Assembly: GCA_964473815.1 (NCBI GenBank)
Contig: CAYYQK010000003.1
Span: 108,966 to 154,337, forward strand
DNA length: 45,372 nt
From: an uncultured Candidatus Saccharibacteria bacterium
GTDB lineage: Bacteria; Patescibacteriota; Doudnabacteria; UBA920
Direction: 5' to 3'
Positions 16,894 through 45,372 of this stretch are shown here, piece by piece. The stretch's first letter is position 1. The number at the start of each line of letters is the position of its first letter. The notes beneath the pieces are model-generated. The model had not been told where the DNA came from. It was given only the letters and a program-made list of their open reading frames with translations, and did not search any database. Position numbers and translations under genes: made by a program.

Positions 16894-16970
16894 GCACCCG
16901 TAGCTCAGCTGGATAGAGCGTTCGCTTGCGGAGCGAGAGGTCATAGGTTCGAATCCTGTCGGGTGCACCA
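16894..16970 (+). tRNA. tRNA-Arg, anticodon GCG
   Basis: Cloverleaf: acceptor gcacccg/cgggtgc, anticodon loop TT-GCG-GA, T loop TTCGAAT, encoded CCA. Confidence 0.93.
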
Positions 16971-17441: not shown

Positions 17442-17517
17442 GACTCCGTAGCTCAGTTGGAAGAGCAGGGGACTTCTAAGCCCAAGGTCGCAGGTTCGAT
17501 CCCTGCCGGAGTCGCCA
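17442..17517 (+). tRNA. tRNA-Arg, anticodon TCT
   Basis: Acceptor gactccg/cggagtc, loop CT-TCT-AA, T arm gcagg-TTCGATC-cctgc, CCA; anticodon stem has two mismatches. Confidence 0.85.
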
Positions 17518-29007: not shown

Positions 29008-29061
29008 GGTGGATGTAGTTCAGTGGTAGAGCGCCGCTCTGTGGCAGCGGATGTCGCGGGT
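29008..29061 (+). pseudogene. 5' part of an interrupted tRNA-His(GTG); putative attL
   Basis: G-1, acceptor 5' gtggatg, D arm, anticodon arm ccgct-CTGTGGC-agcgg and T-stem gcggg are intact, but the local 3' sequence cannot pair with the acceptor strand. Confidence 0.8.
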
Positions 29062-29151
29062 CCGAATCCGCTTGACCCAACACTTTCCTATATGGAAACA
29101 GGTCAGGCTTATGGGTTGCGAGCGATTTACAATTGAATAGTTCCTACTTAT

Positions 29152-29227
29152 GGTGGCTGTAGTGTAATGGCAACACGGCGCTCTGTGGCAGCGCAATCGC
29201 GGGTTCGATTTCCCGTCAGCCACCCCA
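29152..29227 (+). tRNA. tRNA-His, anticodon GTG (complete second copy)
   Basis: G-1, acceptor gtggctg/cagccac, discriminator C, CCA, loop CT-GTG-GC; 8-nt T loop. Confidence 0.88.
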
Positions 29228-29231
29228 GACC

Positions 29232-29257
29232 AAAAATCGCCTGAAAGGCGGTTTTTT
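29232..29257 (+). terminator. Terminator after tRNA-His
   Basis: aaaaatcgcc-tgaaa-ggcggttttt. Confidence 0.75.
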
Positions 29258-29271
29258 GTTAAGATACAATT

Positions 29272-29811
29272 ATGAAGAATATTACTTTTATTACTGGTAA
29301 CCAAAATAAGGCTGATTACTTAGCAAAGTATCTTGGGTTTCCTGTAAAGCATTTAAAGCTGGATTTAGAAGAATTACAATCGCTCGACTTAAAAGAAATC
29401 GTTGAGCATAAAGTTAAGCAGGCTTATGAGATTGTTAAAGAACCAGTGATTGTTGAAGATGTATCTTTGGAGTTTTCTGCGTTAGGTAGATTGCCAGGAA
29501 CTTTCATAAAATTTTTTGTCGATGAAGTTCCATTTGAGACAATCTGTTCAATGCTAAACGATAAGACCCGCAAAGCTACTGCTCGATGCGTTTTTGGTTA
29601 TTACGACGGTAACGATTTACAATTATTTGAAAGTAGTCTCGATGGTGAAATAGCCGAAAGCCCGTCAGGAGAAAATGGTTACGGCTGGGATAAAATTTTT
29701 ATTCCTCAGGGATATACTCAAACCCGAGCTTCTTTAAATGAAGAAGACGACCGTAAAACATACCTTAAGATAAAACCTTTTGCACAGCTAAAAAGTTTCT
29801 TGGAAAAATAA
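29272..29811 (+). CDS. Non-canonical purine NTP pyrophosphatase (Ham1/ITPase family)
   Basis: FITGN.NK, EELQ, VED..L....L..LPG..IK, GENGYGWD.IF.P. Confidence 0.9.
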   Translation: MKNITFITGNQNKADYLAKYLGFPVKHLKLDLEELQSLDLKEIVEHKVKQAYEIVKEPVIVEDVSLEFSALGRLPGTFIKFFVDEVPFETICSMLNDKTRKATARCVFGYYDGNDLQLFESSLDGEIAESPSGENGYGWDKIFIPQGYTQTRASLNEEDDRKTYLKIKPFAQLKSFLEK

Positions 29812-29845
29812 CGGGTGCAAACCCTTATTTTTATAAACCCCCTCT

Positions 29846-30577
29846 ATGCCAAAGTTAAAACCTACAAAGAAATCTAAACCCGAAGTTCACAAACCGAAAA
29901 GAATTACTATCGGCGAATTGGTGTATCGCCAAATGAGAGAAGACCACGCTAAGTTTGGGACTATGCTAAAAGCTCAGCAGCCATACTTTGAGGCCACTCA
30001 AGATGCTTTGGAAAAGGTAAGACTAATTGGCGAGGCGTTAAATAAACAACCTCAACTGTGGGATAGTTTTAGAAAAGCGGCTGAAATAGAGCGCCAACTT
30101 TCTGAACCTATGCGGAAATTAGCAGAGCCGATGCGTCAGTTAAATGAGCATTTAGAAAAACTTAAAGGTATAGGCACATTTAGATTATCACCCGCACTGA
30201 CAGAGATGATAAAAAATATCTCTAAATTACCTATTCCCGAGCTACTGAAGCCAGACCCTGATGAAATGGAAATAATTACTTATTCACCGCCTCCAATCAC
30301 TGTTGTAAAAAATCAACTTAATAACTTGGAAAGTAAATTAGAAGATTTTAGCGAACAAATTAAAAACACAGTAACAGAACAATTTGACAAACTGGCCGAG
30401 CGAAGTATAATAAATGCAGGATATAAAGAGCAGATAGTGTATTGTGGAGCTTGTAACGCTCCTATATGCAAAGTGAAAAACCCTGTTCTCTATACCTTAA
30501 GTATTCGTTCTCAAATTTGCCCTAAATGCAACAAAAGATTAGAGCAACCACGAGACTTTAAAATCAAGGATATTTAG
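29846..30577 (+). CDS. Hypothetical coiled-coil protein with a C-terminal CxxC...CxxC zinc finger
   Basis: CGAC and CPKC near the C-terminus. Confidence 0.7.
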   Translation: MPKLKPTKKSKPEVHKPKRITIGELVYRQMREDHAKFGTMLKAQQPYFEATQDALEKVRLIGEALNKQPQLWDSFRKAAEIERQLSEPMRKLAEPMRQLNEHLEKLKGIGTFRLSPALTEMIKNISKLPIPELLKPDPDEMEIITYSPPPITVVKNQLNNLESKLEDFSEQIKNTVTEQFDKLAERSIINAGYKEQIVYCGACNAPICKVKNPVLYTLSIRSQICPKCNKRLEQPRDFKIKDI

Positions 30578-30599
30578 TTTTGTAAAAATTTAACTGTCA

Positions 30600-30686
30600 T
30601 AAGGCCTACGAGGTCTTATGGCTTGGCTTTACGAAGTCCAATTAGGATAACTCTTACGAGGGTTGCCCTAATTGGGCTTTTTTTGT
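30600..30686 (+). ncRNA. Putative structured RNA/attenuator upstream of the rep gene
   Basis: Three hairpins each capped by TACG with G-U pairs; the last sits on a 9-bp perfect stem ccaattagg/cctaattgg followed by a T run. Confidence 0.45.
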
Positions 30687-30691
30687 TTTCT

Positions 30692-30874
30692 ATGCCACAA
30701 CCTGAGCAAAATAAACTCAACAAGAAACAAAAAGAAGCTATGGCCGATGCCTTAGCCAGTTTTTTCTTTGATTTTTGGCAAAACAGTTCTAACCGACGGG
30801 GTAATGAAGTAGCTACCTTAGAAGTAGGTTCATCTTGTAGAGGGGGTTTCCCTACACCTAAGGTGGCTTCTTAA
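30692..30874 (+). CDS. Small hypothetical protein upstream of rep (60 aa, start moved to ATG 30692)
   Basis: MPQPEQNKLNKKQKEAMADALASFFFDFW...; follows the hairpin cluster. Confidence 0.45.
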   Translation: MPQPEQNKLNKKQKEAMADALASFFFDFWQNSSNRRGNEVATLEVGSSCRGGFPTPKVAS

Positions 30875-30896
30875 TTATCTCGGTAAAATCCCCTCT

Positions 30897-32057
30897 ATGG
30901 ACACAATAAGAATTAAAATTCCTAACGATAAGTTTCTGATTAAAGACCCTGCTTTTTTCAACGAAGTAAAAAGTAGCCATTTTACTAATTCCCCGAGGTT
31001 CAAAGTAGAAAAAACCAACAACGGTTTTAGGAACGAACAAAGTAAAAAAGGTTTTTATGCTCCCAAATTTAAGCTCTTGGATATGCTATTTGGTATTGCA
31101 GATAACCACTTGGTGGTAGAATTTTCAGCACCAAAACTTCTATACGGAACTAACTTAAAAGAGGTAACAGAAGCGGATTTACCCGAAATCATTACTAAAC
31201 TAAAACTATATCTTAAATCCATAGGAATAGGGATATTTGAAAAGAACTTAGAAAACGCCACTGTAACTTTAGTCGCCTACGCAAAGAATATTCCCATTTC
31301 ACATTTAGGCAAAACAACCGAAGTTTTACGAGTGTTATTACCGTTTGATTATCGACCTCGCTCAGAATTTAGGTTTACTTACAAACAAGATAATAGCCAC
31401 GCAGAGCTAAAATACTTCAACAATAATACTCATCTCGTCCTATATGACAAGCTCGCTGAATTGCTGGGTAAGCCCATTACAGACGAAGAAAAAAAGATTG
31501 CTGACTACTACAAAAAAGGAGTTATACCGCCAGAATACGAAAGCATCATCACAGAAACTTTGCGCTTTGAGCTAACATTGCACACTAAATTCGCGGTTAA
31601 GCAAGTTATGGAAAAACATTACGGCCGCAAGAATGACTATACCCTGAGTGAGGTTTTTAAGGACAAAATTAGAGACGAGGCTTTAAAGGCGGAAGTTAGT
31701 AATATTTTCAACCACCCGCTCAAGGAAATCGTATTATTGAGGTCATACGACCAAACCACATTCAATAAAATCATCGACCAGTTATGCAAAAACTTTTCCC
31801 AGTCTGCCGAATTACGGACTATGTTTGACATTATTTATACTCGTGGAATTGGCGAACTGAGAAAAGAAGTAACCAGCAAATCTTCTAAACGCACTTGGTT
31901 CAGGAAGAAGCAAAAGATAAAACAACTACTCAAAGAAATTGACTTACCACCACCGCAAGGCAACATTGATAACGCAAAAGTTATTGAATATATACTGTCT
32001 CAATTTGGCATTGAACCCAATATACGAGAACCGAAACAATTAGAAATCTTTACCTAA
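30897..32057 (+). CDS. Putative replication initiator (Phage_CRI/Rep_trans-like, rolling-circle type)
   Basis: N-terminal DT, EFSAPKLLYG.N, LYDK..E and LRFE motifs recalled from that superfamily; not verified by search. Confidence 0.5.
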   Translation: MDTIRIKIPNDKFLIKDPAFFNEVKSSHFTNSPRFKVEKTNNGFRNEQSKKGFYAPKFKLLDMLFGIADNHLVVEFSAPKLLYGTNLKEVTEADLPEIITKLKLYLKSIGIGIFEKNLENATVTLVAYAKNIPISHLGKTTEVLRVLLPFDYRPRSEFRFTYKQDNSHAELKYFNNNTHLVLYDKLAELLGKPITDEEKKIADYYKKGVIPPEYESIITETLRFELTLHTKFAVKQVMEKHYGRKNDYTLSEVFKDKIRDEALKAEVSNIFNHPLKEIVLLRSYDQTTFNKIIDQLCKNFSQSAELRTMFDIIYTRGIGELRKEVTSKSSKRTWFRKKQKIKQLLKEIDLPPPQGNIDNAKVIEYILSQFGIEPNIREPKQLEIFT

Positions 32058-32226
32058 ATAAGTATGACACTACCACCCTCTACTATGTTACCCTCGCTCA
32101 CCATACAAAAACCTTCAAAAATCACTCCCAAGTATTACCACAATAAGTATGCCAAAAGTGGCACTATTAGATACGGCAATATGTATGACACAGGCTTTGA
32201 AAGACCGCCCTGAATATGTATGACAC
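32057..32226. repeat. Iteron-like direct repeats AATA(A/T)GTATG(A/C)CA
   Basis: Copies at about 32058, 32142, 32178 and 32213; the last two are identical 14-mers aatatgtatgacac. Confidence 0.7.
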
Positions 32227-32265
32227 CTTCCCACTCTAATTAACCCTTAAAAATCTCTAATCACT

Positions 32266-32655
32266 ATGGATACTAATAACCAAACCTACGAAGAAAAAAT
32301 CATATATTCTATCTACGAAGAAACAATCGTCGAAATCTTGGATACCCAATTTGAAACCGAGGCTACGCCACAGCTCATTGAAGATATTACCAACGAACTT
32401 TACGCTCAAGATTATATTTACCCCGCCCTCATAGACTGTGTTCACCACACTCTCGAATACAACGAGTTAATAGAGCGAAACAAAAAAGCCAAAGATAGCA
32501 AACCGCATTACATAGTTAAATATAAAAATCCCAACGCTTATGTTGTGGATTTTACGGAAATAGGTATTTTCTTAACAGAGCAGGATGCAGAAAAATATAT
32601 ACAATTTCAAGACAAAGACGAATTTACTGAATACCTTATTGAGAAAATACAGTAA
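32266..32655 (+). CDS. Acidic hypothetical protein
   Basis: 129-aa ORF ending at a terminator. Confidence 0.7.
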   Translation: MDTNNQTYEEKIIYSIYEETIVEILDTQFETEATPQLIEDITNELYAQDYIYPALIDCVHHTLEYNELIERNKKAKDSKPHYIVKYKNPNAYVVDFTEIGIFLTEQDAEKYIQFQDKDEFTEYLIEKIQ

Positions 32656-32661
32656 AATCTA

Positions 32662-32688
32662 AAAACCCCAGCAACGGTCTGGGGTTTT
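32662..32688. terminator. Bidirectional terminator
   Basis: aaaaccccag/ctggggtttt between convergent genes. Confidence 0.75.
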
Positions 32689-32705
32689 ATTTCAAAAGAG
32701 TAGCC

Positions 32706-32927
32706 TTAAAACTTAAACAAATCTTCGACAGATACGCCTAAAGCTTTGGCGATTTTCTCAACATTTTTAAGCCCGACATTCCTTTCCCCTCTTTCAACTC
32801 CACCCATATAAGTTCTGTCTAAACCAGCCTTATTCGCTAAAGCCATTTGAGAAATATCCCCTTTTTGTAAGCGTATATCTCTTACTCTTTTGCCAAATTT
32901 TATTAGTATTTCGTCGCTTTTATTCAC
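32706..32927 (-). CDS. XRE-family HTH regulator, restriction-modification controller (C protein)-like
   Basis: FGKRVR..R...SQ..LA..AGLDRTY...VERG.RN..L.N...IA.AL.V. Confidence 0.88.
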   Translation of the reverse strand: MNKSDEILIKFGKRVRDIRLQKGDISQMALANKAGLDRTYMGGVERGERNVGLKNVEKIAKALGVSVEDLFKF

Positions 32928-32949
32928 CCTTTAAGGGTAGGCCTTAGAC

Positions 32950-32974
32950 GACTATAAGGCGACGGACTATGAGT
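32950..32974 (-). promoter_or_regulatory. Tandem C-box-like operator
   Basis: Minus strand actcATAGTC-cgtcgcc-ttATAGTC, about 22 nt upstream of the GTG start of the C-like gene. Confidence 0.65.
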
Positions 32975-33053
32975 ATCCTGATATTTATGATATATTATTG
33001 GAAACTACTGATACTTATAAGTATTCAGTAAAATAAGATAATCATATAATTCA

Positions 33054-34028
33054 ATGAAAAAATGTCCCTTTTGTGCAGAGGAGATACAAGAAAGTGCAGT
33101 GGTGTGTAAGCACTGTAAAAGCCCTCTGACCGCAACCTCCCCTGCTGTTGCGACAACAACGCCAACCAAACAACCGACACAGGTAAACTGGAAAAAGATT
33201 GGAAATATTTTTGGCACAATCTTTTTGATAGGTCTTGTCTTGAAGTTTTGGTATATTGGCATACCCGCAGTTGTTGCGTGGTATTTGTTTAAGAAGCGTA
33301 AGAACAAGTTTAGCCAACGCACCAACATAATTGCCACTGCGGTAGTAGCGGTAATCTTTATTGGGGCTGGCATAGCCAACGCTCACGGAAACAGGAAGCC
33401 CGAATTGACCATTACCGAACCGCAAGCCAATGCAAGTGTGCAGGCAAAGAGCATAACAATTAAGGGAAAGGTAAATCCTGCCAGCTCAACTGTGGTGGTT
33501 AATAACACACCTGCACAAGTAGACAGTAGTGGTAACTTCACCTATGACGCACCGCTTGAAAACGAAGCCAACACCATTACGGTTATTGCCACCAACGCTG
33601 GAAAAACTACACCACAAACTTTAACCGTCAGTCGTATTTTTACCCCAGAGGAAATGGCAGAGCGTGAACGGTTAAAGGCAGAAGCGGAAGCAAAGAAGCA
33701 GGCACAATTGGAAGCCCAACAAAAAGCCCAAGCGGAAGCTGACGCAAAGGCAAAGGCTGACCAAGCCGCTTACGAGCGAAGCAAAGCAGGTCAGTTATGT
33801 AAGGCTCACCCTGATTGGGATAAGGAAACCTGCCAAAGAGTTGCAGACCGCAACTACTGGGTAGGTATGACATATGAACAACTTGTCGCTTCATACGGTA
33901 GTAAACCTAACAGTGCCAACCCTTCAAACTATGGTGGTAAAACACAGTGGCAGTGGTGCTGGCACAGTTACAGTCCGTCTTGCTTCTACGACAACAATGA
34001 TGACGGTATAATTGACAGTTACAACTAA
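33054..34028 (+). CDS. Membrane-anchored surface protein: zinc ribbon, TMs, Ig-like domain, Ala/Lys coiled coil, small C-terminal domain
   Basis: CPFC...CKHC, three hydrophobic segments, P.LTITEP...G.F...PL....NTITV.ATN..G, AEAKKQAQ repeats. Confidence 0.8.
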   Translation: MKKCPFCAEEIQESAVVCKHCKSPLTATSPAVATTTPTKQPTQVNWKKIGNIFGTIFLIGLVLKFWYIGIPAVVAWYLFKKRKNKFSQRTNIIATAVVAVIFIGAGIANAHGNRKPELTITEPQANASVQAKSITIKGKVNPASSTVVVNNTPAQVDSSGNFTYDAPLENEANTITVIATNAGKTTPQTLTVSRIFTPEEMAERERLKAEAEAKKQAQLEAQQKAQAEADAKAKADQAAYERSKAGQLCKAHPDWDKETCQRVADRNYWVGMTYEQLVASYGSKPNSANPSNYGGKTQWQWCWHSYSPSCFYDNNDDGIIDSYN

Positions 34029-34032
34029 CCCT

Positions 34033-34323
34033 ATGGCTGAAAAAGAACTAAACCCGCAGGCAGTAAAAGACTGCCCATATTGTGCGGAACATATACAAGC
34101 AGAAGCGATAGTATGTAAGCACTGTGGCTATAATCTCACTACTGGCAAGCCTGTCGAATGGTTGAAGCCCAGCCCACCTACTTCGCCACCCACTCAAAAT
34201 CAAGTTACAGCAAAAAGCGGTATAGGAGACGGGGTTCGGTTAGGATGCGGGATGTTTATTGTCTTACCTATTCTGATAATTATCGGTATAATCATATTTA
34301 TTGCTATTGTCGGTAGCTTCTAA
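34033..34323 (+). CDS. Small zinc-ribbon membrane protein
   Basis: CPYCAE.IQ..A.VCKHCG plus C-terminal TM; start moved to ATG 34033. Confidence 0.75.
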   Translation: MAEKELNPQAVKDCPYCAEHIQAEAIVCKHCGYNLTTGKPVEWLKPSPPTSPPTQNQVTAKSGIGDGVRLGCGMFIVLPILIIIGIIIFIAIVGSF

Positions 34324-34346
34324 TAAAAACAAAAAATAACTTTTTG

Positions 34347-35369
34347 TTATCGCAACAGGAAGTTATTTTTAATTGTATTTTCTAAGGAGTAATTATTAGA
34401 GTGCTTTAGCATACCCAAATATGACTGTACGGTTTGGTAGAAACTATCAAATTCAAGCTCGCCTGCCGTTAATAAATCATCCTTATAAGATAATTTCTTT
34501 AACATCCTGTTTTTGGTCTTTCGTCTTATTCCAATATATTTAGGCAAAATAATGTATCCTAAGAAGTCTATCCCCTGTGTATACTTACGCAGTTCAATTT
34601 TATTAGGATGTAAATAAACCCCTAACCTACCTGATACAAAGACTGAAACCCATTTCAGTATTTCTTCCAAGTAATTTCTATCTTTATGGACAATTGCAAA
34701 ATCATCAGCATAACGAAAGTAATACTTTACCCCAAGTTTATGTTTTACAAACTGGTCTAATTCATTCAGGAAAATGTTGGCAAAGATTTGTGATGTCAGA
34801 TTACCAATAGGAATGCCTTTGCCCTGTGAAAAGCTCCCGAGTATTTCTCGTATCAACCATAGAAATCGCTTATCCTTTATTCTCTTTTCGATAATTTGCA
34901 GAAGCAAGTTATGAGGAACACTGTGAAAAAATTGTTTTATATCACACTTCAAAACATATGTTTGCCGAGAGCCATTCTGACTTTCTTCCCTTAATGCTTT
35001 TCTGAGGTTTTCGACGGCGCGATGCGAACCCTTATCAAGCCTTGATGAGTAAGAATGAAAGATAAAAGTAGGGTCAAAAATTTCATACAATTTAGCAAAG
35101 ACCAAATGGTGAACCAGCCTATCTCTTACAGTAGCTTTGCTTATAATTCTGTGTTTTGGGTCATAGATGTGAAAGGTTGTATACCGCCCGTGTCTGTATG
35201 TTTGATTGACGAGCTGATGATGCAAGTTGAACATATTGTCTTCCAAATATCGTTCAAAGTGCATTACATCACTTTTCGAAATCTTACCGCGCTTAAACTC
35301 ATCCCAAGAAACCAGTATGTTTTCCAAACTAACTAAGAAAGGATAATTAACACTATGAACAACTTGCAT
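34347..35369 (-). CDS. DGR reverse transcriptase
   Basis: DPK.R.I.KA.VRDR.VHH, KCDIKQFF.S, GIPIGNLTSQIFAN, RYADDF, IDFLGY; no internal stops. Confidence 0.96.
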   Translation of the reverse strand: MQVVHSVNYPFLVSLENILVSWDEFKRGKISKSDVMHFERYLEDNMFNLHHQLVNQTYRHGRYTTFHIYDPKHRIISKATVRDRLVHHLVFAKLYEIFDPTFIFHSYSSRLDKGSHRAVENLRKALREESQNGSRQTYVLKCDIKQFFHSVPHNLLLQIIEKRIKDKRFLWLIREILGSFSQGKGIPIGNLTSQIFANIFLNELDQFVKHKLGVKYYFRYADDFAIVHKDRNYLEEILKWVSVFVSGRLGVYLHPNKIELRKYTQGIDFLGYIILPKYIGIRRKTKNRMLKKLSYKDDLLTAGELEFDSFYQTVQSYLGMLKHSNNYSLENTIKNNFLLR

Positions 35370-35720
35370 AATAAAGATTATTTAGACGAAATCCCGATAA
35401 TTAGAAAAGTATACGAACTTTACAAACTATACTACGGTTATTTAGAATTGTTCCCGAAAAAAGACAAATATGCTTTAGGCAGTAAATGTGAATTATACAT
35501 TATCGCCGTCCTCGAGCTCTTGCTATCCGCAGGTAGTCTTCCCAAAGAAAGCAAGGGTGAAGTAATACAACAAGCCAGTGTTAAGTTTGATACGCTAAAA
35601 GTTTTGTTGCGGATGGCCAGAGAGCTTGGGTTATTAGATAACAAGAAGTATATTGCGCTACAAACCTGTATCCAAGAAATAGGCCGTATGCTCGGTGGAT
35701 GGCAACGCTCCTTAAAGTAA
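35355..35720 (+). CDS. avd: DGR accessory variability determinant (Avd, four-helix bundle)
   Basis: FPKKDKYALG, LK.LLR.A.EL, KY.....I.EIGRMLGGW. Confidence 0.9.
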   Translation: MNNLHNKDYLDEIPIIRKVYELYKLYYGYLELFPKKDKYALGSKCELYIIAVLELLLSAGSLPKESKGEVIQQASVKFDTLKVLLRMARELGLLDNKKYIALQTCIQEIGRMLGGWQRSLK

Positions 35721-35751
35721 CAGGAGTTCCTCAATCAAGAGGAACTCCTGT
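35720..35751. other. Perfect 13-bp hairpin just 3' of the TR (minus-strand sense)
   Basis: acaggagttcctc-aatcaa-gaggaactcctgt. Confidence 0.85.
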
Positions 35752-35763
35752 AACCAGACACAA

Positions 35764-35884
35764 CCCGAGAACGACGAGACCACCAGCGTAGTTGTCGTTG
35801 GCATTGTCGAGGTTGATCCTGTTGTCGAAGTTGAGGTTGTCGTCGTTGGCGTTGAAGTAGAGCGAGTTGTCAGACGACTGCCAC
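35764..35884 (-). repeat. DGR template repeat (TR)
   Basis: 121 nt; in the VR frame it has 10 AAY codons and 31 adenines, none at third codon positions. Confidence 0.97.
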
Positions 35885-36141
35885 CACTCAACGAAAATTG
35901 CCGTTTCCCATCCATACCACCAGAACATTAGCCTTACCGCATTTCTACTTATACTCTAATTGTTCTTGTATTTAATCCGCCTATAACAGGCTTAAGAAAC
36001 AGCAAGTAGTGTCTGATGTTTTGGTATACTCTCTTGCAATCCACTCGAACTGCAAAACTCTGATACTTAGAAAACTCAGGATTTCGGTAACGACAATCCG
36101 TAGACGGCCGTGTATTAACCTACTTTCAGAGATATTATACC

Positions 36142-36184
36142 AAAAAGAAAAGCGGGGGCAATGATATTTCACATTGCGCCCCGT
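36142..36184 (-). terminator. Hairpin/terminator downstream of target 1
   Basis: cgggggcaatg...cattgcgccccg with a minus-strand T run. Confidence 0.7.
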
Positions 36185-36267
36185 ACGATTGATAGATTTC
36201 GGAGACCAAAGTCCAAGAGCCAAAGCCCTGAACCAAAAACAAGTTTCCAAAATCCGAAGACCTTTCA

Positions 36268-37260
36268 CTACCCGAGAACGACGAGACCACCAGCGCAGTA
36301 GTCGTAGGCATCGTCGAGGACGATCCCGTAGTCGAAGAGGAGGTTGCCGTCGCGGGCGCCGAAGTAGAGCGAGCAGTCAGACGACTGCCACTGCATTACG
36401 GCAAGGTCGAGCAAGGGCGTTTTGCTGTCCCGAGCTAATACATCTGGAAAAGCCACCATCGCTCCCGCAGCGTCGAAACCGCCAGCAAGCAGGAACTTGT
36501 CAGGCAGGCTCGCCATCTGTTCACGGTCGGCGTGGACGCTGAAACCTTGCAGGCAATTCGGAAAGTAAATCCCGACCACGTTGCCTTGCTTCATCGCTTC
36601 GACGAGCCGTTCGTGACGAGAGCCTTCCACTATAGTGGTCTGACCAGCGAGAGTTCCTTTGCGGTAGTTGTAAAAACTGCGCTTGGGAAACTCTGCCTTG
36701 TAGCTTCGCTCAACGGCGGGCAGGAACACTTCGTCCAATACCCGACCATAGTCGTCAACCTGTGTCTGCGGCAGATAGAACGGCAAATGAACGCCGTTGG
36801 TGATGAGTTGGGTCTTTTCGTCAACCCGCAAACCATCCAAGATTGCCTCGGCACGGTTCTCAAACTCGTCCGCCGAAATCGCCTCTTTCAGGACAAAGCA
36901 ATCAACAATGCGAGCAAGCCGCTCGGCGTAGTTAAGCTTCGTGTGTTTCAGAAAGTAGTTGCGACTTGCGTCCGTGACTGAAGCGGTAAGTGTGCGAGGC
37001 GGGATGCGACGACCGTGCTTGTCGAACCACTTAATAATCGCATCGGTCAAACTAACTTCTTTCTCGCCACGCAGGATAGCTTCAACCGCTTCCATTCCGC
37101 CGAGAATGTTCACAAGGGCTTCGTTCTGCCCAAGGTTCATCTCGCCGTATTTGGGTGTTGCAAGCTGCTTCCCCGCCAGCAGTCCGTCAATGCCTTTACG
37201 CCCATTGAGCAAATCAGCAAGCGTAATAACTTCGTTAATTTTCAAATCTCCGTGTTTCAC
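36268..37260 (-). CDS. DGR target protein 1 (330 aa from GTG 37260), C-terminal variable region
   Basis: Ends in VR1; SD aaggagga 7 nt before the GTG; paralog of target 2. Confidence 0.92.
   Translation of the reverse strand: MKHGDLKINEVITLADLLNGRKGIDGLLAGKQLATPKYGEMNLGQNEALVNILGGMEAVEAILRGEKEVSLTDAIIKWFDKHGRRIPPRTLTASVTDASRNYFLKHTKLNYAERLARIVDCFVLKEAISADEFENRAEAILDGLRVDEKTQLITNGVHLPFYLPQTQVDDYGRVLDEVFLPAVERSYKAEFPKRSFYNYRKGTLAGQTTIVEGSRHERLVEAMKQGNVVGIYFPNCLQGFSVHADREQMASLPDKFLLAGGFDAAGAMVAFPDVLARDSKTPLLDLAVMQWQSSDCSLYFGARDGNLLFDYGIVLDDAYDYCAGGLVVLG
36271..36391 (-). repeat. Variable repeat VR1
   Basis: 17 mismatches to TR, all at TR adenines. Confidence 0.97.
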
Positions 37261-37350
37261 TGTAAAATCCTCCTTCAGGCTATTTGCCCGAATTTTCTGC
37301 AAATTCCACTACCCGTGGATTGGGAACTTTCCGTGATGAAAAGATGTATA

Positions 37351-37379
37351 AATATAGCATATTTTTAGCTTTTAGTCAA
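37351..37379 (-). promoter_or_regulatory. Promoter of target 1
   Basis: TTGACT-N17-TATATT with TG extension. Confidence 0.7.
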
Positions 37380-37410
37380 CCCTTCGACCAAAAGCTATTT
37401 TTGACTTAAT

Positions 37411-37452
37411 AAACAAAAAAACGGGGCGATGAAATTGCACATCGCACCCGTT
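37411..37452 (-). terminator. Hairpin/terminator downstream of target 2
   Basis: aacggggcgatg...catcgcacccgtt with a minus-strand T run; homologous to the target 1 hairpin. Confidence 0.7.
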
Positions 37453-37527
37453 GTAGAAAATTCGAGACCAAAGACCAGAACCCAAAAGCCGAGACAAGCC
37501 CAAGCTTCCGAACTCCAAAATCCGACA

Positions 37528-38463
37528 CTACCCGAGAACGACGAGACCACCAGCGCAGAAGACGCTGGCACCGTCGAGGCCGATCCCGCTGCCGAAGCTG
37601 AGGTAGTCGCCGCTGGCGAAGAAGTAGAGCGAGCGGCCAGACGACTGCCACTGCATTGCGGCAAGGTCGAGAAGCGGAGTAGAGCCGTCCCGAGCAAGAA
37701 CGTCGGGATAAGCAATCATTGCAGCTGCGGCATCAAAGCCACCTGCCAGCAAAAACTGCTCTGGCAAACTATCCATCTGCTCACGGTCGGCATCCACCGA
37801 ATACCCTTGCAGGCAATTCGGGAAGTAAATGCCAACCACTGTGGCTTTCTTCATTGCCTCGACCAACCGCTCGTGGCGAGAACCAGCGACGATTGTCGTT
37901 TGTTCCGCCAAAGAACCTTTACGGTAGTTATTGAATGGTCGGTTACCGCCGAAATGCTCTGCATAGGAGTTATTCACTCCCGTCAGGAACACCTCGTCCA
38001 GAACCTGACCGTAGTCTTCGACATCCATCTGCGGAATGACGAAAGGCAGATAAGTGCCTTTGAGCAGATTGCTCACCCTATCGTCTTCACGGATGCCATC
38101 GATAATTGCTTCGCTCCTCGTCTCAAAGTCCGCCGCCGAAATGTTGTAAAGATACTTTGGCGAGTTGAGATAAGTTTGCAACCGAGCCAGTCGCTGACCG
38201 TAGTCGAGCGTTGGCTGATTGAAGCGATAGTCACGGTCGGGTTTCGTGGTATTAGCCTTCAACCCCCGAGGGCGAATGCGAACACCGTTACGGTTGAACA
38301 GGGACACGTTCTGCGGTCTTGCCTTGAGCAGCAGTTTACTGTCAACGACTTCCGTCGCCAATGTTCCTGCGGCTATGGCTCTGGCGTTGTTTTCGCCAAG
38401 ATTTTTGACCAAAGCGTTAAGGTCGCCTGTTTTCCAGTCCTTAATAAAAAATTCCGATTTCAT
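37528..38463 (-). CDS. DGR target protein 2 (311 aa), C-terminal variable region
   Basis: Ends in VR2; SD aaggagga; paralog of target 1. Confidence 0.93.
   Translation of the reverse strand: MKSEFFIKDWKTGDLNALVKNLGENNARAIAAGTLATEVVDSKLLLKARPQNVSLFNRNGVRIRPRGLKANTTKPDRDYRFNQPTLDYGQRLARLQTYLNSPKYLYNISAADFETRSEAIIDGIREDDRVSNLLKGTYLPFVIPQMDVEDYGQVLDEVFLTGVNNSYAEHFGGNRPFNNYRKGSLAEQTTIVAGSRHERLVEAMKKATVVGIYFPNCLQGYSVDADREQMDSLPEQFLLAGGFDAAAAMIAYPDVLARDGSTPLLDLAAMQWQSSGRSLYFFASGDYLSFGSGIGLDGASVFCAGGLVVLG
37531..37651 (-). repeat. Variable repeat VR2
   Basis: 21 mismatches to TR, all at TR adenines. Confidence 0.97.
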
Positions 38464-38548
38464 TGTCTTCCTCCTTGGGCTTCATTGCCCGAATGGTGAT
38501 TTGCCTCTACCCCGAGGCAGGGACTGCTTGGTATCAAGCAGATGTATA

Positions 38549-38577
38549 AATATAACATATTTGAGCGCATTAGTCAA
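38549..38577 (-). promoter_or_regulatory. Promoter of target 2
   Basis: TTGACT-N17-TATATT with TG extension; same architecture as the target 1 promoter. Confidence 0.7.
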
Positions 38578-38639
38578 TAATTTGACTGTCCCCTAACTTT
38601 CCTATATAATCTTATATAGCTAACTATATACGATTTAAT

Positions 38640-39692
38640 ATGACTAATTACGAAAAGCGACTACTAACTATACCCGCCTCTGTTGCCACCAAAATTGGCC
38701 AAATTGACGAGTTAAAAGGTCAATGGGTGTCTGGGGCGCAATTAAACCCACAGGTGCTGGGACGGCTTAAAAAGTCTGTTCTTGTTACATCCACAGGAGC
38801 TTCTACTCGCATAGAGGGAGCTATATTGTCGGATGAAGATGTAGAAAAATTCGTGAAAGGGATTGGTTTGCAAAAATTCTCCGATAGAGATAAAGGCGAA
38901 GTAAAAGGTTACTACGAATTACTGAACACAGTTTTTGATAACTGGCGGGCTATACGATTAAGCGAAAGCACTGTAAAACACTTCCACAAAGAACTGCTGA
39001 AATATGTAGGCAAAGACGAGAGGCATCGCGGTGAATACAAGATTGCCGACAACACTGTAGAAATGAAAGATGCATCTGGGAAAACAATTGCTGTGATGTT
39101 CAAACCAACACCAGCATACTTAACACCCAAAGAGATGCAAGAACTGGTTGAGTGGACGCAAACAGCAACAAAGGAAAAGAAATACCACCCGCTACTGATA
39201 ATTGCAAACTTCATAGTTGAGTTCTTAAACATCCACCCTTTCACAGACGGGAACGGCAGACTTAGCCGAATTTTAACTAACCTCTTATTGTTAAAAGAGG
39301 GCTATTTATATGCGCCTTATGTGTCGCACGAAAAGATTATTGAAGATAACAAACCAGACTACTATTTAGCATTACGAAAAAGTCAAAAGACCATTAAGAC
39401 TGCAAAGGAGGACATAATCCCGTGGCTTGAATTTTTCTTAGACACATTTTTACAACAATCTCGTATGGCCGTTGAACTCCTATCTGCTGAGAATGTAGAA
39501 AAGTTATTCTCCCCTACCCAGCTTAAAGTGTGGGAGTATTTACAAAAAGTAGATGAGGCAACTCCTATGGAAATTAGCGAACAAATGAGTGTTCCTCGCC
39601 CAACTGTCAATCAAGTGTTAGACAAACTGCTCAAATTAAAACGCATTGAACGGCTTGGTGCGGGTAGAGCAACAAGATACAAAAAACTATAA
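38640..39692 (+). CDS. Fic family protein with a C-terminal winged-helix
   Basis: HPFTDGNGRLSR catalytic motif; N-terminal STRIEG inhibitory-type motif. Confidence 0.93.
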   Translation: MTNYEKRLLTIPASVATKIGQIDELKGQWVSGAQLNPQVLGRLKKSVLVTSTGASTRIEGAILSDEDVEKFVKGIGLQKFSDRDKGEVKGYYELLNTVFDNWRAIRLSESTVKHFHKELLKYVGKDERHRGEYKIADNTVEMKDASGKTIAVMFKPTPAYLTPKEMQELVEWTQTATKEKKYHPLLIIANFIVEFLNIHPFTDGNGRLSRILTNLLLLKEGYLYAPYVSHEKIIEDNKPDYYLALRKSQKTIKTAKEDIIPWLEFFLDTFLQQSRMAVELLSAENVEKLFSPTQLKVWEYLQKVDEATPMEISEQMSVPRPTVNQVLDKLLKLKRIERLGAGRATRYKKL

Positions 39693-39697
39693 AAGTT

Positions 39698-41329
39698 ATG
39701 GTAAAAACTCCCTCTCAAAAACCAAAGCTTGGTGTTGGTTATATTCGGGAAAGCACCGAGGAACAGGACAAGGGCTTTTCCCCTGCCAACCAAAAACGCA
39801 CTATAGAAGATTACGCGGCTAAGAACAATATCAAAATTACGGATTGGTATAAAGACTTAGTAACTGGAACGAAAGCCAGCAAACGCGATGACTTTCAACG
39901 AATGATTACCGATGCAATGGAAAAGAAGTTTGAAGTTATTTTAGTATTCCATACTTCGCGCTTTGCCCGTAATGTATCAGAAGCCCGACAATACAAAGAC
40001 CTACTTCGTAAGAAACAAGGTATTGATGTAATTTTCGTAACTCAACACTTTGGCGATTATGATAGCCCAAGTGGCTTTTTGAACGAAGGCGTAAACGAGT
40101 TGTTTGATGAATACTACTCTAAGCAACTCAGTTTTTGGGTGCGTTCAACACTAATGGAAAAGCGGAAACAAGGAAAACAAATTGGAAGCGTTCCATTGGG
40201 TTATTACAAAAAGAAGCTGGGTTTTGATAAGGATAAAGGTAGAGCAATTTATGCCAAAGAATGGTTAGTGCATCCACAGGAAAGTAAATTGGTGAAAAAG
40301 ATATTTACACTCTACGCTACTGGCAAATATTCTTATGCTGATGTAGCCGCAGAGCTAAATAAAATGGGAGCTAAGACAAAAAGCGGTTATCCTTTCACTT
40401 ATAGTTCAATCAAAGATATTTTGGACAACCAAACTTATCTTGGCAAAGTATTTTCTAAACGGAGAGGTTATCCAACCCACACAGGTGAACATCCAGCTAT
40501 TATTACACAAAAGCTTTTTGATAAGGTGCAAGAAGTTATTGCGCAACGACGAAATACACAGGGTAGACCCGTTGCTCAACATAGGTTTTATCTCTTGCAG
40601 GATTTAATCTACTGCTGGAATTGCCGTAAATATCTAAAGGGTAAGGAAGATAATCCCAATCCTCGCGCTCAGATGTTACCAAAAATGTATTGTGAAACTC
40701 ACCAATATGTAGACGCCAAAGGTGTTAGACACGAAAAGCTAACTTACCACTGCAAGATTGCGAGGGAAACCAAATCGTGCAAACAGCCCATTGTTGCGGC
40801 AGATATAATTGATAAGCAAGTTATCGCTTTAATGGAAGGGTTTAAGCTTCCTAATGATGTGATTGAGATGACAGTCAATAGATTAAAGGTCTTATTCAAG
40901 CACGCTCAGCGTTCAGTAAAAGATTTAGATACTGTTGCAAAATTAGAAGCTAAAAAGAAAAAACTAAACTGGATGTTCGCCAATACCGAAGAACTAACCG
41001 AGGCTGACTATATAAAACAGTTGCGGGAGCTTAACAACGAGCTTCAAAAATATGATGATTTGGGTTTAGTAAAAAATAACTCTGTAACCAAAGAAACCGA
41101 ATACATAAAAAAGACCGAGAAGTTCTTAAAGAATTTCAAACAATTCTGGCGTTCTGACATTGGTGACGAAGAACGCAGGGCTTGGATACAAATGACAATT
41201 AAGCGGGTATGGGTTAAAAATCAGAAAGTTATAGCCATAGAACCGCACGATGATTTTAAGCCTTTATTCGCAGCGCATAGAAAAGTCTTGGTTCAAGCCC
41301 CGTCATCCACCCCACAAAGAACGAACTGA
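39698..41329 (+). CDS. Large serine recombinase A
   Basis: GYIRESTEEQ catalytic motif, SRFARN, recombinase domain, zinc ribbon, coiled coil. Confidence 0.93.
   Translation: MVKTPSQKPKLGVGYIRESTEEQDKGFSPANQKRTIEDYAAKNNIKITDWYKDLVTGTKASKRDDFQRMITDAMEKKFEVILVFHTSRFARNVSEARQYKDLLRKKQGIDVIFVTQHFGDYDSPSGFLNEGVNELFDEYYSKQLSFWVRSTLMEKRKQGKQIGSVPLGYYKKKLGFDKDKGRAIYAKEWLVHPQESKLVKKIFTLYATGKYSYADVAAELNKMGAKTKSGYPFTYSSIKDILDNQTYLGKVFSKRRGYPTHTGEHPAIITQKLFDKVQEVIAQRRNTQGRPVAQHRFYLLQDLIYCWNCRKYLKGKEDNPNPRAQMLPKMYCETHQYVDAKGVRHEKLTYHCKIARETKSCKQPIVAADIIDKQVIALMEGFKLPNDVIEMTVNRLKVLFKHAQRSVKDLDTVAKLEAKKKKLNWMFANTEELTEADYIKQLRELNNELQKYDDLGLVKNNSVTKETEYIKKTEKFLKNFKQFWRSDIGDEERRAWIQMTIKRVWVKNQKVIAIEPHDDFKPLFAAHRKVLVQAPSSTPQRTN
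41290..41314 (+). other. Displaced 3' end of tRNA-His (T arm, acceptor strand, CCA); putative attR of element A and junction of element B
   Basis: gg-TTCAAGC-cccgt-catccac-c-cca; catccac pairs 7/7 with gtggatg at 29009-29015. Confidence 0.85.
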
Positions 41330-42901
41330 TGTTAATTCATCGGTTCGTTCTTTGTTTATAGGGTGTTTCGTTGGTTCTGATTTTTGATATTGCACTTCGA
41401 GCTTTTTATAACCGCTCAGAACTGGCTCAAACCACTTATGCATTTCAATATTCAATGCTCCATCTTTAAGTGTGAATGCCGAACCCATTGCAGAAAATAT
41501 CTCTTTTTTAGTATTGATACTACCACTCGTGAACTTTTCTTTAGCGTGAGTTGCAAAATCAAACACCTTCTCAGTTAGCTCCAACCAGTTTACAGCACGA
41601 ACCTCTGTTTCTTCTCGCAGCTGCTTTAACTGTACTATTTTAGATTGCAATATTTTCTTTTCTGATAAATACTCATCATCAGTAATAAGATCCCGATATC
41701 GCATTTTAGTCAGATTATCTAATTGATTTTGTAACTCCAGCAAGGTGCTGCTCTGTGATTGATGCTTATCACTACGAATAGCGATCTCCTGATCATTCCA
41801 GTTATTCAGAATTTCTACTGCCCAGTCACGAAATTCAGGAAGTATCTGGAGTTGTGACAACTTTACCGTTATCTGATTATCTAATTCAGATTCTGCTATT
41901 ACCTTCTTTTGAGAACAACTCACATACTTCTTTTTACCCGTACAGTGATAATAATCATATCGCTTGTTTTCACCAGTCGATTTGATCTTTTTAAATTTAG
42001 TTTCAGCAGTTACATGGGCGCCGCATTCTCCACATCTAATAATCCCGGAGAAAGGATGTTCATGACGTTTAGGACGTGGTTTACCTTGTTTTTGTCCTAA
42101 TAATTCTTGCACACGTTCATATTGCTGAATGGTTACCATCGGCTCATGAATACCCTGATAAGTATGGCCATTCCATTCGATTATACCAGCGTAGAACTTG
42201 CTATAGAACATACTATATAACCCACTCAAAGATAAAGGCTTTCCACCTCTTAGCTTTCGTTGTATTGTACGGAAGCCCCAGTCATCATTCACAATTTTTA
42301 AAATCTGTCGTACAGAGTAGTTGCCAGTCAGCATTAGCATCCACATCTGCTTTACCATATCAAAGCGTTCAGGATCCTTTACAATCGTCTTTTCCAACTT
42401 GTCATTTAAGTAACCCAAACGAGCAAGGTTAGGTTGCCATCCCTTTTGTAATTTGCTCTCCATTCCACGTAAAGTATTCTTCCTAAGGTCTAAAATAAAC
42501 TGGTTGGCCATACCACTTTCAAGACTGAGCAATAATACACTATCTTCTGGAAGATAAGTACGATCATAAGTCTGAATAGCTTTAATTACACCATTCTGCA
42601 ACATCCATTGGATAGTACCACTATCAACCGGATTGCGTGAAAGACGATTAATTTGCCAGCATAAAATTCCATCAGCTTTACCCTGCTGAATTGCGTTTAA
42701 CATCTCTCCAAATAAAGGACGATCAGATGGCTTTTTGGCTGATTTGGATTCTTTATAAATCCCAACAACTTCTAGCTGTTGATCAGTAGCCAAATTCGTT
42801 AAACGATTTACTTGATCTTCAATGGATTGGATTTGGCGATCTTCGGATTCACTACTCTTTCTAGCGTATAGGAAATATCGCAGAGGTGGTTTTATGGTCA
42901 T
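41303..42901 (-). CDS. Large serine recombinase B
   Basis: YARKSSE...Q..SIEDQ, RL.RN..D, P.GY, C.ECG zinc ribbon; stop codon lies in the tRNA 3' fragment. Confidence 0.93.
   Translation of the reverse strand: MTIKPPLRYFLYARKSSESEDRQIQSIEDQVNRLTNLATDQQLEVVGIYKESKSAKKPSDRPLFGEMLNAIQQGKADGILCWQINRLSRNPVDSGTIQWMLQNGVIKAIQTYDRTYLPEDSVLLLSLESGMANQFILDLRKNTLRGMESKLQKGWQPNLARLGYLNDKLEKTIVKDPERFDMVKQMWMLMLTGNYSVRQILKIVNDDWGFRTIQRKLRGGKPLSLSGLYSMFYSKFYAGIIEWNGHTYQGIHEPMVTIQQYERVQELLGQKQGKPRPKRHEHPFSGIIRCGECGAHVTAETKFKKIKSTGENKRYDYYHCTGKKKYVSCSQKKVIAESELDNQITVKLSQLQILPEFRDWAVEILNNWNDQEIAIRSDKHQSQSSTLLELQNQLDNLTKMRYRDLITDDEYLSEKKILQSKIVQLKQLREETEVRAVNWLELTEKVFDFATHAKEKFTSGSINTKKEIFSAMGSAFTLKDGALNIEMHKWFEPVLSGYKKLEVQYQKSEPTKHPINKERTDELTSVRSLWGG
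41315..41354 (+). terminator. 17-bp hairpin directly after the tRNA CCA
   Basis: caaagaacgaactgatg-ttaatt-catcggttcgttctttg (one G-U pair), followed by ttta. Confidence 0.8.
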
Positions 42902-42905
42902 AATA

Positions 42906-43094
42906 TTATGTTAATTTAATTTCTGATTTTTCTAAAGACCCCTTAGGATAATCAGAACTACTTTCCTTTATTACGACTTGAAACAAACGAATCAGCTTCA
43001 AACCATATTCAAGAGCCTGATCTCGGCTAAGTTCTTTGCCGAACCGATCCATCCATATGCTTTGAAATTTTTTTAATTGTTCGTCTGTTAGCAT
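42906..43094 (-). CDS. Small protein immediately upstream of recombinase B (possible directionality factor)
   Basis: 62 aa, 4 nt upstream of the recombinase start; function inferred from position only. Confidence 0.55.
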   Translation of the reverse strand: MLTDEQLKKFQSIWMDRFGKELSRDQALEYGLKLIRLFQVVIKESSSDYPKGSLEKSEIKLT

Positions 43095-43145
43095 TTAATT
43101 TATTGTTTTTACCAAACGAAAATAGCAGCAATGAGATCATCCACC

Positions 43146-43577
43146 CTAATTCGTGGAAGATTGACCAGATTTTATAGTTTTGTATTCATGAATTGCTTTG
43201 TAAAAGCTACGCAAAATGGACGAATTGTAGCGAGTTAACAATTCTAAAGAATTATTATCTTTCAAAAAGTCCGCCAAAATGGGTATAAAATCTCGCTCAG
43301 CATCCCTTGGATATTTAGGAGTACCGCCAAAGATAAGTAATTCATTCTCAACTTTAAGGAATCGCCGCAATCGCCAATACTGTAATATGATTTGTTCAGC
43401 CAATATATTTTCTAGAACATTTTGTGGATCAAGTTCCGCATAAAGTTGCTTAGCTAATTTGTTGAAAGGTCGCGATTCTTCTGGGCTTACTATTACGCTC
43501 TTAGCTAACAAGCCATGCTTAATAGCATTGAGTTTGCTCAAGCTTGAGTTCTTTGAATTGTTTGTTTCTGTATTCAT
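43146..43577 (-). CDS. Hypothetical protein
   Basis: S..NA.KHGL motif near the N-terminus; helical composition. Confidence 0.7.
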   Translation of the reverse strand: MNTETNNSKNSSLSKLNAIKHGLLAKSVIVSPEESRPFNKLAKQLYAELDPQNVLENILAEQIILQYWRLRRFLKVENELLIFGGTPKYPRDAERDFIPILADFLKDNNSLELLTRYNSSILRSFYKAIHEYKTIKSGQSSTN

Positions 43578-43685
43578 CGTGGAGAGGACCTTTCCCGAAT
43601 TCCGACACCATAGGGTATATATTTTTCTTATTCCCCTTCCTGTTAGGATTTCGGGAAAGGTCTATTAATAATTAGCAGAACCCTT

Positions 43686-44921: not shown

Positions 44922-45264
44922 ATTTTTTATTTGTTTTTAGGTGATTAATTATTTTGTCTAATAGGCTTGGCCATGTTGTCGGAAATGACACATATATTCC
45001 TGCATTTTGCAGAGAGAATGCAATTACGTTGCGAACATCATCATCAATATCTTTTAGATACCAATTAGATATCAACAATACTTCTTTACTCATCGTAGAC
45101 ACCACACAGATTGCTCCGATTAGGTCTATACGTTTCCAACATACTTTCTCCTTTGATCCTACAGGCTCAAAAGCGAAGCGCAGCTTTGGATCCTTGGAGT
45201 AATAAGATATGGGCCAATCCAAGCAATTTTGTTTTAATTTATCAATACTTTTATACCCGAACAT
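44896..45264 (-). CDS. Hypothetical protein
   Basis: 122-aa ORF overlapping the ATPase start. Confidence 0.55.
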   Translation of the reverse strand: MFGYKSIDKLKQNCLDWPISYYSKDPKLRFAFEPVGSKEKVCWKRIDLIGAICVVSTMSKEVLLISNWYLKDIDDDVRNVIAFSLQNAGIYVSFPTTWPSLLDKIINHLKTNKKYVHLNNQS

Positions 45265-45372
45265 AAATCTACTTTCTCCTGACCAGTAACCACCTCGTTA
45301 ACCGGCCAGGAGATAATAGGTTTAGAGGTGGTATAAAAAACAAAAAACCAGCTTACGCTGGTTAACAAAATG

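Follow-up and report, generated by a model that had tools for sequence, protein, structure and literature searches.

A large serine recombinase element splits a tRNA-His gene and carries a complete tRNA-His copy in an uncultured Candidatus Saccharibacteria bacterium

The window analyzed here, by which we mean the whole stretch of 45,372 nucleotides from contig CAYYQK010000003.1 (assembly GCA_964473815.1) of an uncultured Candidatus Saccharibacteria bacterium, originates from a wastewater metagenome scaffold. ARAGORN calls three tRNAs within it, one of which is a tRNA-His(gtg) at 29153–29227 on the forward strand; with the preceding nucleotide as G-1, the gene spans 29152–29227 and is recovered by Rfam as RF00005 (57 bits, E 8.5e-10). 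When G-1 (29152) is included, the minimum-free-energy fold is a cloverleaf whose acceptor stem has 8 bp (G-1:C73) and whose D stem has 4 bp; the variable loop is 4 nt long, the T loop (TTCGATTT) 8 nt, and CCA is encoded. The hallmarks of a bacterial tRNA-His—a GUG anticodon, G-1 paired with C73, and a cloverleaf—are all met, and these results bear out a preliminary description of this DNA, made from the sequence alone, that had placed a full tRNA-His(GTG) inside a mobile element. Behind the gene, at approximately 29234–29257, a hairpin (CGCC-TGAAA-GGCG) followed by TTTTTT forms the terminator that the same description had assigned to this copy; a terminator scan flags this hairpin on the minus strand, the structure being terminator-like whichever strand is read, and a weak RNAI-like Rfam match is explained by the same structure. 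The window also contains two intact tRNA-Arg genes, with anticodons GCG and TCT (16894–16970 and 17442–17517), in its host part and unrelated to the element.

A second, weaker Rfam match (31.6 bits) lies just upstream, at approximately 29008–29079, and does not fold as a cloverleaf. Its first 62 nucleotides (29008–29069, forward strand) are the 5′ part of a host tRNA-His, from G-1 to C62, with the acceptor strand GGTGGATG; together with the sequence from 29070 onward they make up a nonfunctional hybrid, attL, that is not a tRNA. The missing 3′ end, CATCCACCCCA, is found 12.2 kb away at approximately 41290–41314 (one match, where 0.01 would be expected by chance), and the host 3′ part proper comprises the 14 nt from C63 to A76 (CGTCATCCACCCCA) at 41301–41314, also on the forward strand. 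It is followed by a hairpin at 41318–41355 (AAAGAACGAAC...GTTCGTTCTTT), read from the sequence, that is likely the host tRNA-His terminator. Paired with one another, the two host parts form a complete acceptor stem (8/8) and T stem (5/5), and T68 in the 3′ part compensates for A5 in the 5′ part; because the fragments pair fully and share this private A5:T68 pair, which is absent from the element copy, they must once have been one working gene. Over the 62 nt present, the 5′ part matches the intact genes of two MAG loci (L007 and L008) except at A5 and C55. The element copy lies in the same orientation as this broken gene, and the differences between the two that had been listed earlier all hold on comparison: the D arm is GTGT/ACAC in the copy and GTTC/GAGC in the host gene, the variable loop is AATC rather than ATGTC, and the T loop has 8 nt rather than 7.

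It had also been proposed that decay of either host half would leave the host dependent on the element. This finds no support in the halves themselves, which still pair completely. We considered C55 (29062) as a sign of decay, given that T occupies this position in runs X2–X4 and in MAGs and that C is found in the attL of the window, L009, L092, and L095; this reading was dropped because an intact and perfectly paired tRNA-His in L099 (4120–4194) also carries C55. Other hints of decay are confined to L024, with an A4:C69 mismatch, and L089, whose core is ambiguous; host decay leading to dependence on the element is speculation. As a separate observation, T loops with C55 (TCCGAWT) are shared by a number of the split tRNA-His 5′ halves and by one tRNA-His that is intact. 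Almost all other tRNAs have U55, and the variant may be a lineage trait of some Patescibacteria tRNA-His.

The point at which the host gene is interrupted can be placed precisely from two relatives (L035 and L011) whose element copy shows few or no differences from the host gene. At these loci the agreement of attL with the gene extends through C62 and that of attR begins at C61, such that the crossover core must be the dinucleotide CC at tRNA positions 61–62, corresponding to window positions 29068–29069 and 41299–41300. The element occupies 29070–41300 (12,231 bp). At its left end, the arm at 29070–29151 (forward strand) begins with the half-site GCTTGACCCAACACT (29070–29084), and at its right end the half-site AGTCTTGGTTCAAGC (41284–41298) is followed by the core (element right end 41284–41300, forward strand). 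Joining these ends gives a deduced attP of AGTCTTGGTTCAAGC-CC-GCTTGACCCAACACT, whose half-sites match as an inverted repeat at 13/15 positions, and a deduced attB of ...GCGGGTCCGAAT-CC-CGTCATCCACCCCA. What is expected of serine-integrase sites, namely an imperfect inverted repeat around a non-palindromic 2-bp core in attP, with attL and attR sharing the core only, is met here, and the deduced attP has the layout of a classical serine-integrase attP. In L006, a contig that comes from another study, the left arm has the same sequence, and it is also conserved in L091, L089, and L035.

The preliminary description had put the left junction at about 29062 and the tRNA 90 nt inside it. The copy does lie within the element, but the alignment of L035 and L011 and the symmetry of attP move the junction to the CC core, and the distance from core to tRNA becomes 83 nt. 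An exchange within the GGT at approximately 29059–29062 was considered and rejected: T55 is missing from the 'T loops' at the attR of relatives (GGTCAAGCCCC), whose conservation follows the recombinase rather than the host, L035 and L011 fix the core at C61–C62, and attP is palindromic only with that core. The recombinase genes of relatives finish in ...AAAGTCnTnGGTCAAnCCCC and then run into a host-specific acceptor strand, and the T-loop-like stretch must therefore belong to the element.

The recombinase itself (LSR1; 39698–41329, forward strand; 543 aa) is a large serine recombinase with a resolvase domain (PF00239, E 3.5e-26) and a Recombinase domain (PF07508, E 3.3e-20). Across 58 relatives, Y15, R17, S19, and Q23 are invariant and cysteines C306, C309, C332, C352, and C361 are conserved; a zinc ribbon (PF13408) is precomputed for several relatives and not called by Pfam in LSR1 of the window. 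The last LSR1 codons cross attR into the host tRNA 3′ part. Translating the att half-site, then the core, and then the 3′ end of tRNA-His yields the C-terminal consensus of the family, KVxxQxPxxTP, and the overlap of attP with the last codons is conserved across the family. As a consequence, the protein read from the integrated form ends in ...VQAPSSTPQRTN (543 aa), and that read from the excised form would end in ...VQARLTQHFPIWKQVRLMGCERFTIE (557 aa); the window positions concerned are 41284–41329 and 29070–29150. This swap of the C-terminal tail on integration may act as a switch of directionality or expression.

An actual attP junction is present in a sister element (L091, positions 208–300, after a gap of Ns), where the LSR 3′ end is joined through CC to the element left end; this arrangement indicates a circular or tandem form of the sister element. 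For the window element, neither empty-site (attB) nor circle (attP) joints were found in Logan contigs from 8 runs, an assembly set that drops rare forms, and no recombination directionality factor was identified within the element. That LSR1 integrates attP into attB, and excises the element with the aid of a directionality factor, is an inference with indirect support from the L091 junction and from the mobility between hosts described below; that this particular element still excises is likewise inferred.

The remainder of the element is arranged as follows. Behind the tRNA and its terminator is a cargo gene for a Ham1/ITPase-family NTP pyrophosphatase (29272–29811, forward strand; PF01725, E 1e-33), present in L006 and absent from L089 and L091. 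A backbone (29846–32927) follows, comprising proteins of 243, 60, 386, and 129 aa and a 73-aa XRE-type HTH protein on the minus strand (approximately 32706–32927); its gene order is the same in L089, L091, and L099, and the 386-aa protein has a weak match, at the Pfam cutoff, to rolling-circle Rep (Phage_CRI/G2P). The next segment (33054–38463) holds two Zn-ribbon/membrane proteins and a diversity-generating retroelement (DGR; 34347–38463), with a reverse transcriptase (34347–35369, minus strand), bAvd (35355–35720, forward strand), a template repeat (TR; 35752–35884), and variable repeats (VRs) in two target genes (36259–36391 and 37519–37651). The features that define a DGR are all present, as reverse transcriptase, Avd, and a TR/VR pair with mismatches almost only at template adenines, and VR2 differs between samples whose element is otherwise identical; the DGR is complete and appears active. 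Between it and LSR1 is a Fic-domain protein with a C-terminal wHTH (38640–39692, forward strand; PF02661). Among relatives for which the gene immediately before the LSR is in view, most have a Fic gene there (L089, L091, L092, L096, L098, and L099), though L095 and L101 do not.

Searches with Pfam and PHROGs recover no phage structural genes (capsid, terminase, portal, or morphogenesis) in the element, and a tailed prophage or inovirus identity was rejected on the basis of this absence of structural matches, the weak Phage_CRI/G2P match being the only one of its kind. The family is also essentially absent from IMG/VR, where neither the attP pattern nor the B-type tRNA pattern has a match and an LSR profile search returns only two distant ones. 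A tRNA-restoring tyrosine-integrase island was similarly ruled out: Pfam detects no tyrosine recombinase among the 12 largest element ORFs, the element ends share no direct repeat longer than the core, the repeated tRNA 3′ segment of such islands being absent, and the hybrid at attL does not amount to a tRNA.

The same tRNA-His 3′ end is approached from the other side by an unrelated second LSR element, E2 (41303–45372, minus strand), which runs off the contig end. Its recombinase, LSR2 (41303–42901), identified with Pfam, converges on the tRNA-His 3′ end and is only 20% identical to LSR1. In the source sample, read depth falls from 12.3 to 8.1 at approximately 41407–41416, suggesting that E2 is present in about two-thirds of the population. 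The same LSR1/LSR2 pair is found in another host (L089, 9144–17514).

Comparison with L006 addresses whether the complete tRNA-His belongs to the element or to the host. That contig carries the same element, tRNA included, in an alignment covering the element at 99.6% identity, and the upstream host flank gene is merely 72% identical to its counterpart in the window; the element and its tRNA are thus horizontally mobile, as these paired alignments show. In a scan of GTDB species representatives with a 44-nt pattern, the host-type tRNA-His is intact, once each, in two Candidatus Saccharibacteria MAGs, and a minor contig from the source sample also holds an intact host-type gene. It could be supposed that the gene at 29152 is the vertically inherited one and that the fragments are relics of an old duplication or rearrangement unrelated to the recombinase, particularly as the copy is approximately 80% identical to the host-lineage tRNA-His and has the same acceptor stem as the L007-type gene. 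This is scarcely tenable, however, for a gene that sits between attL and attR, has traveled with the element to a host whose flank is only 72% identical, and stands beside fragments of a type that is intact in relatives; moreover, the same architecture recurs in unrelated Patescibacteria. Vertical inheritance of the copy, which the preliminary description had named as a possible refutation of its own proposal, is therefore contradicted by the contrast between element and flank, by the intact genes in related MAGs, and by the lack of A5:T68.

LSR1 belongs to a family of such elements. Searches recover 267 relatives at E < 1e-20, and those with a source name are from Patescibacteria. At nearly all of approximately 30 loci examined (42–91% identity), the LSR gene terminates either in a 3′ fragment of tRNA-His, with an acceptor strand specific to the host, or in a 5′ half that is inverted. 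Where both attL and the LSR are in view (the window, L011, L024, L031, L032, L035, L089, and L091), a full tRNA-His lies between them in every case (8/8), beginning within 140–740 nt of the start of the attL hybrid in six of the eight. Two more elements whose left ends are out of view (L040 and L099) also carry a full tRNA-His, and no other tRNA type was found inside any element examined.

Nine of the element copies were compared in detail, with L099 left out of this set. Every one has GTG and G-1:C73, the stem pairs are canonical throughout (198/198), and double-sided, compensatory changes are seen at 16/22 stem positions; the copies are evidently under selection for tRNA structure, to judge from this covariation. 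The copy in L091 is a homolog of that in the window, with the same D arm, 4-nt variable loop, and 8-nt T loop, and differs from it by two compensatory pairs (6:67 and 27:43). Elsewhere the relationship to the host gene is closer: beyond the identical or nearly identical copies of L035 and L011, the L099 copy corresponds, up to the T stem, to the 5′ two-thirds of the host gene split in L009. These matches show an exchange of sequence between host and element copies, and L011 and L035 blur which copy came first. The copies seem to be resampled from successive hosts and would, if so, record past hosts. A contig from run X30 holds a B-type tRNA-His without the extra T (window 29209–29211), with a 7-nt T loop and a different downstream sequence, and may represent a progenitor or another carrier of the element's tRNA lineage.

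Such exchange could also mean that the copy is a redundant passenger that arose incidentally, through target capture or gene conversion, in cells that keep another functional host tRNA-His elsewhere, with no essential complementation. The tRNA-His copy number in the genome is unmeasured, and that the copy is the sole tRNA-His in the cell remains an inference without a whole-genome count. Yet mere capture does not readily account for the finding that all ten elements with enough sequence carry exactly tRNA-His and no other tRNA, nor for purifying selection of the kind implied by nine perfect cloverleaves and 16/22 covarying pairs. The host-type 44-nt pattern is, furthermore, matched only once per MAG, and Patescibacteria genomes are small and usually have one tRNA gene per anticodon. 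We consider a redundant copy improbable.

Whether the copy is expressed and charged with histidine is likewise inferred. Metatranscriptome and RNA contigs (four runs, low depth) cover neighboring element ORFs and include one ambiguous contig over 29014–29168, leaving the tRNA unresolved. The 8-nt T loop is unusual and might impair the function of the copy; the covariation at 16/22 pairs argues for function. The terminator scan found no terminator ahead of the copy between 28981 and 29151, and read-through expression is possible because the copy has the same orientation as the host gene, no terminator between, and one behind.

Taken together, these observations favor the interpretation that the element splits the host tRNA-His and supplies a complete replacement copy, that is, that it complements the gene broken by its own insertion. 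We hold this to be well supported, at a probability of roughly 0.8, and not proven; the preliminary description had reached the same inference, and the full tRNA-His in 8/8 relatives with attL and LSR in view, along with the strong covariation, now stands behind it. LSR1 would take the tRNA-His T arm as attB, with strand exchange at C61–C62. Serine recombinases need only 2 bp of identity between attP and attB. With so little shared, the element cannot rebuild its target from a copied 3′ end as tyrosine-integrase islands do, and insertion leaves a dead 5′ part of 62 nt and a dead 3′ part of 14 nt. The loss would be covered by the element's own complete tRNA-His(GTG), 83 nt inside the left junction and transcribed either by read-through from the host tRNA promoter or from its own promoter, and excision between attL and attR would rejoin the host gene exactly.

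Orientation within the family is consistent with recombination at this core. A sub-clade of relatives (L009, L092, L095, L098, and L099/L100; 65–70% identity) lies in the opposite orientation relative to the tRNA, with the core reading GG on the LSR strand, and in L009, L092, L095, L098, and L099 the LSR end is joined to an inverted tRNA-His 5′ half. The central dinucleotide alone sets the polarity of integration in phiC31 and Bxb1, and the GG core and flipped orientation of this sub-clade fit that rule. L092 also contains an isolated 34-nt tRNA-His 5′ fragment (3774–3807), approximately 350 nt from the occupied att site, and this was probably left behind by an earlier event at the hotspot.

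It is conceivable that the copy mainly serves the element, whether as a second attB landing pad, as an escape from tRNA-targeting defense, or as an aid to translation of the element's own genes. The copy has an attB-like T arm, the tRNA-His locus is a hotspot with two LSR elements, and phage tRNAs with such roles are known. We regard this as quite unlikely, given that the tRNA carried is always the one destroyed and never another, that the elements are small with few genes to translate, and that one inserted nucleotide interrupts the attB-like site, in its left half, in the copies of the window and L091, which argues against selection as a landing pad. Under complementation, the same 1-nt insertion, which produces the 8-nt T loop of the window and L091 copies, may instead protect the copy from the element's own integrase. 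The copy is usually about 145 bp from the attP core, and this short distance may hinder self-recombination between attP and the copy. A further extension, which we put forward only tentatively and think doubtful, is that these elements are addiction-type symbionts of ultra-small bacteria: having destroyed the sole tRNA-His and supplied the sole working copy, they would be indispensable unless excision were exact, and the 8-nt T loop, the distance to attP, and the LSR tail would perhaps be adaptive.

Several known systems share parts of this arrangement. The closest in mechanism are gene-splitting LSR elements, such as SPbeta in spsM, skin in sigK, comK prophages, and Bxb1 in groEL1, an arrangement termed 'regulated gene integrity'. 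Like the window element, these combine a recombinase of Resolvase and Recombinase domains and a cysteine-rich, zinc-ribbon-like region with an attP that is an inverted repeat around a 2-bp core, without long direct repeats, and their target is physically split in such a way that exact excision would rejoin it. However, their targets are dispensable or developmentally regulated protein genes for which no substitute is brought, whereas the window element enters an RNA gene, presumably essential and single-copy, and brings a full replacement; its recombinase gene, moreover, extends at the 3′ end into the att site.

In the choice of target, the closer parallel is with the tyrosine-integrase islands and prophages of tRNA and tmRNA genes (P4, HP1, pSAM2, and Islander-type elements), which also use a tRNA gene and the T-loop region as sublocation, and after whose integration the host keeps a working tRNA, as is proposed here. 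Those islands regenerate the gene through an identical tRNA 3′ segment in attP, leaving direct repeats at both ends, and their recombinase is of a different family; in the window, the shared sequence amounts to just 2 bp, the target gene is lost, and a complete gene is supplied separately. The family described here can thus be regarded as combining the target of tyrosine-integrase islands with the enzyme of serine integrases and an added replacement gene. Phage-encoded tRNAs, such as those of T4, T5, and mycobacteriophages, are similarly functional-looking tRNAs with host-like identity elements on a mobile element, but they are thought to adjust codon usage or to replace depleted or cleaved tRNAs, whereas the tRNA in the window is the one inactivated by the integration of its own carrier, which is small and not a phage. 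Finally, SSV1-type integrase partitioning and the integration-dependent immunity of mycobacteriophages also involve an attP that overlaps coding sequence and a C-terminus that changes on integration; these are tyrosine integrases for which the change is known to matter, while any functional effect of the LSR1 tail swap is untested. A full-text literature search found no serine-recombinase element that splits a tRNA and carries a replacement, although its coverage was incomplete and prior description is not excluded.

If complementation is correct, these elements represent a third way into a conserved gene, in which the gene is destroyed and a spare brought along, as opposed to being regenerated (tyrosine integrases) or to a dispensable gene being split (known serine integrases). 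This would explain how a target that ranks among the most conserved sequences of any genome lies open to a recombinase with which it has only 2 bp in common, and it is a plausible way for bacteria with minimal genomes to become obligately dependent on a mobile element. The tRNA-His locus is also a recurrent integration hotspot in Patescibacteria, carrying DGRs and Fic proteins. For genome engineering, the family provides a large natural set of serine integrases with an attB that is defined, short, and nearly universal (the tRNA-His T arm), including natural variants in which the core dinucleotide, and with it the orientation of insertion, is flipped. For annotation, the pairing of a 'tRNA-His pseudogene' with a tRNA-His gene in MAGs should be read as an occupied att site.

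More distant recombinases point to another use of tRNA genes. The LSR genes of a clade with 33–35% identity (L041–L088), found mostly in metagenomes of soil and peat, are convergent with an intact tRNA-Asp(GTC), whose 3′ end is reached 20–130 nt past the LSR stop; in one member (L054), the 3′ end of tRNA-Asp recurs as a direct repeat 6.8 kb upstream. The arrangement suggests a different, putatively gene-preserving form of tRNA targeting by serine recombinases.
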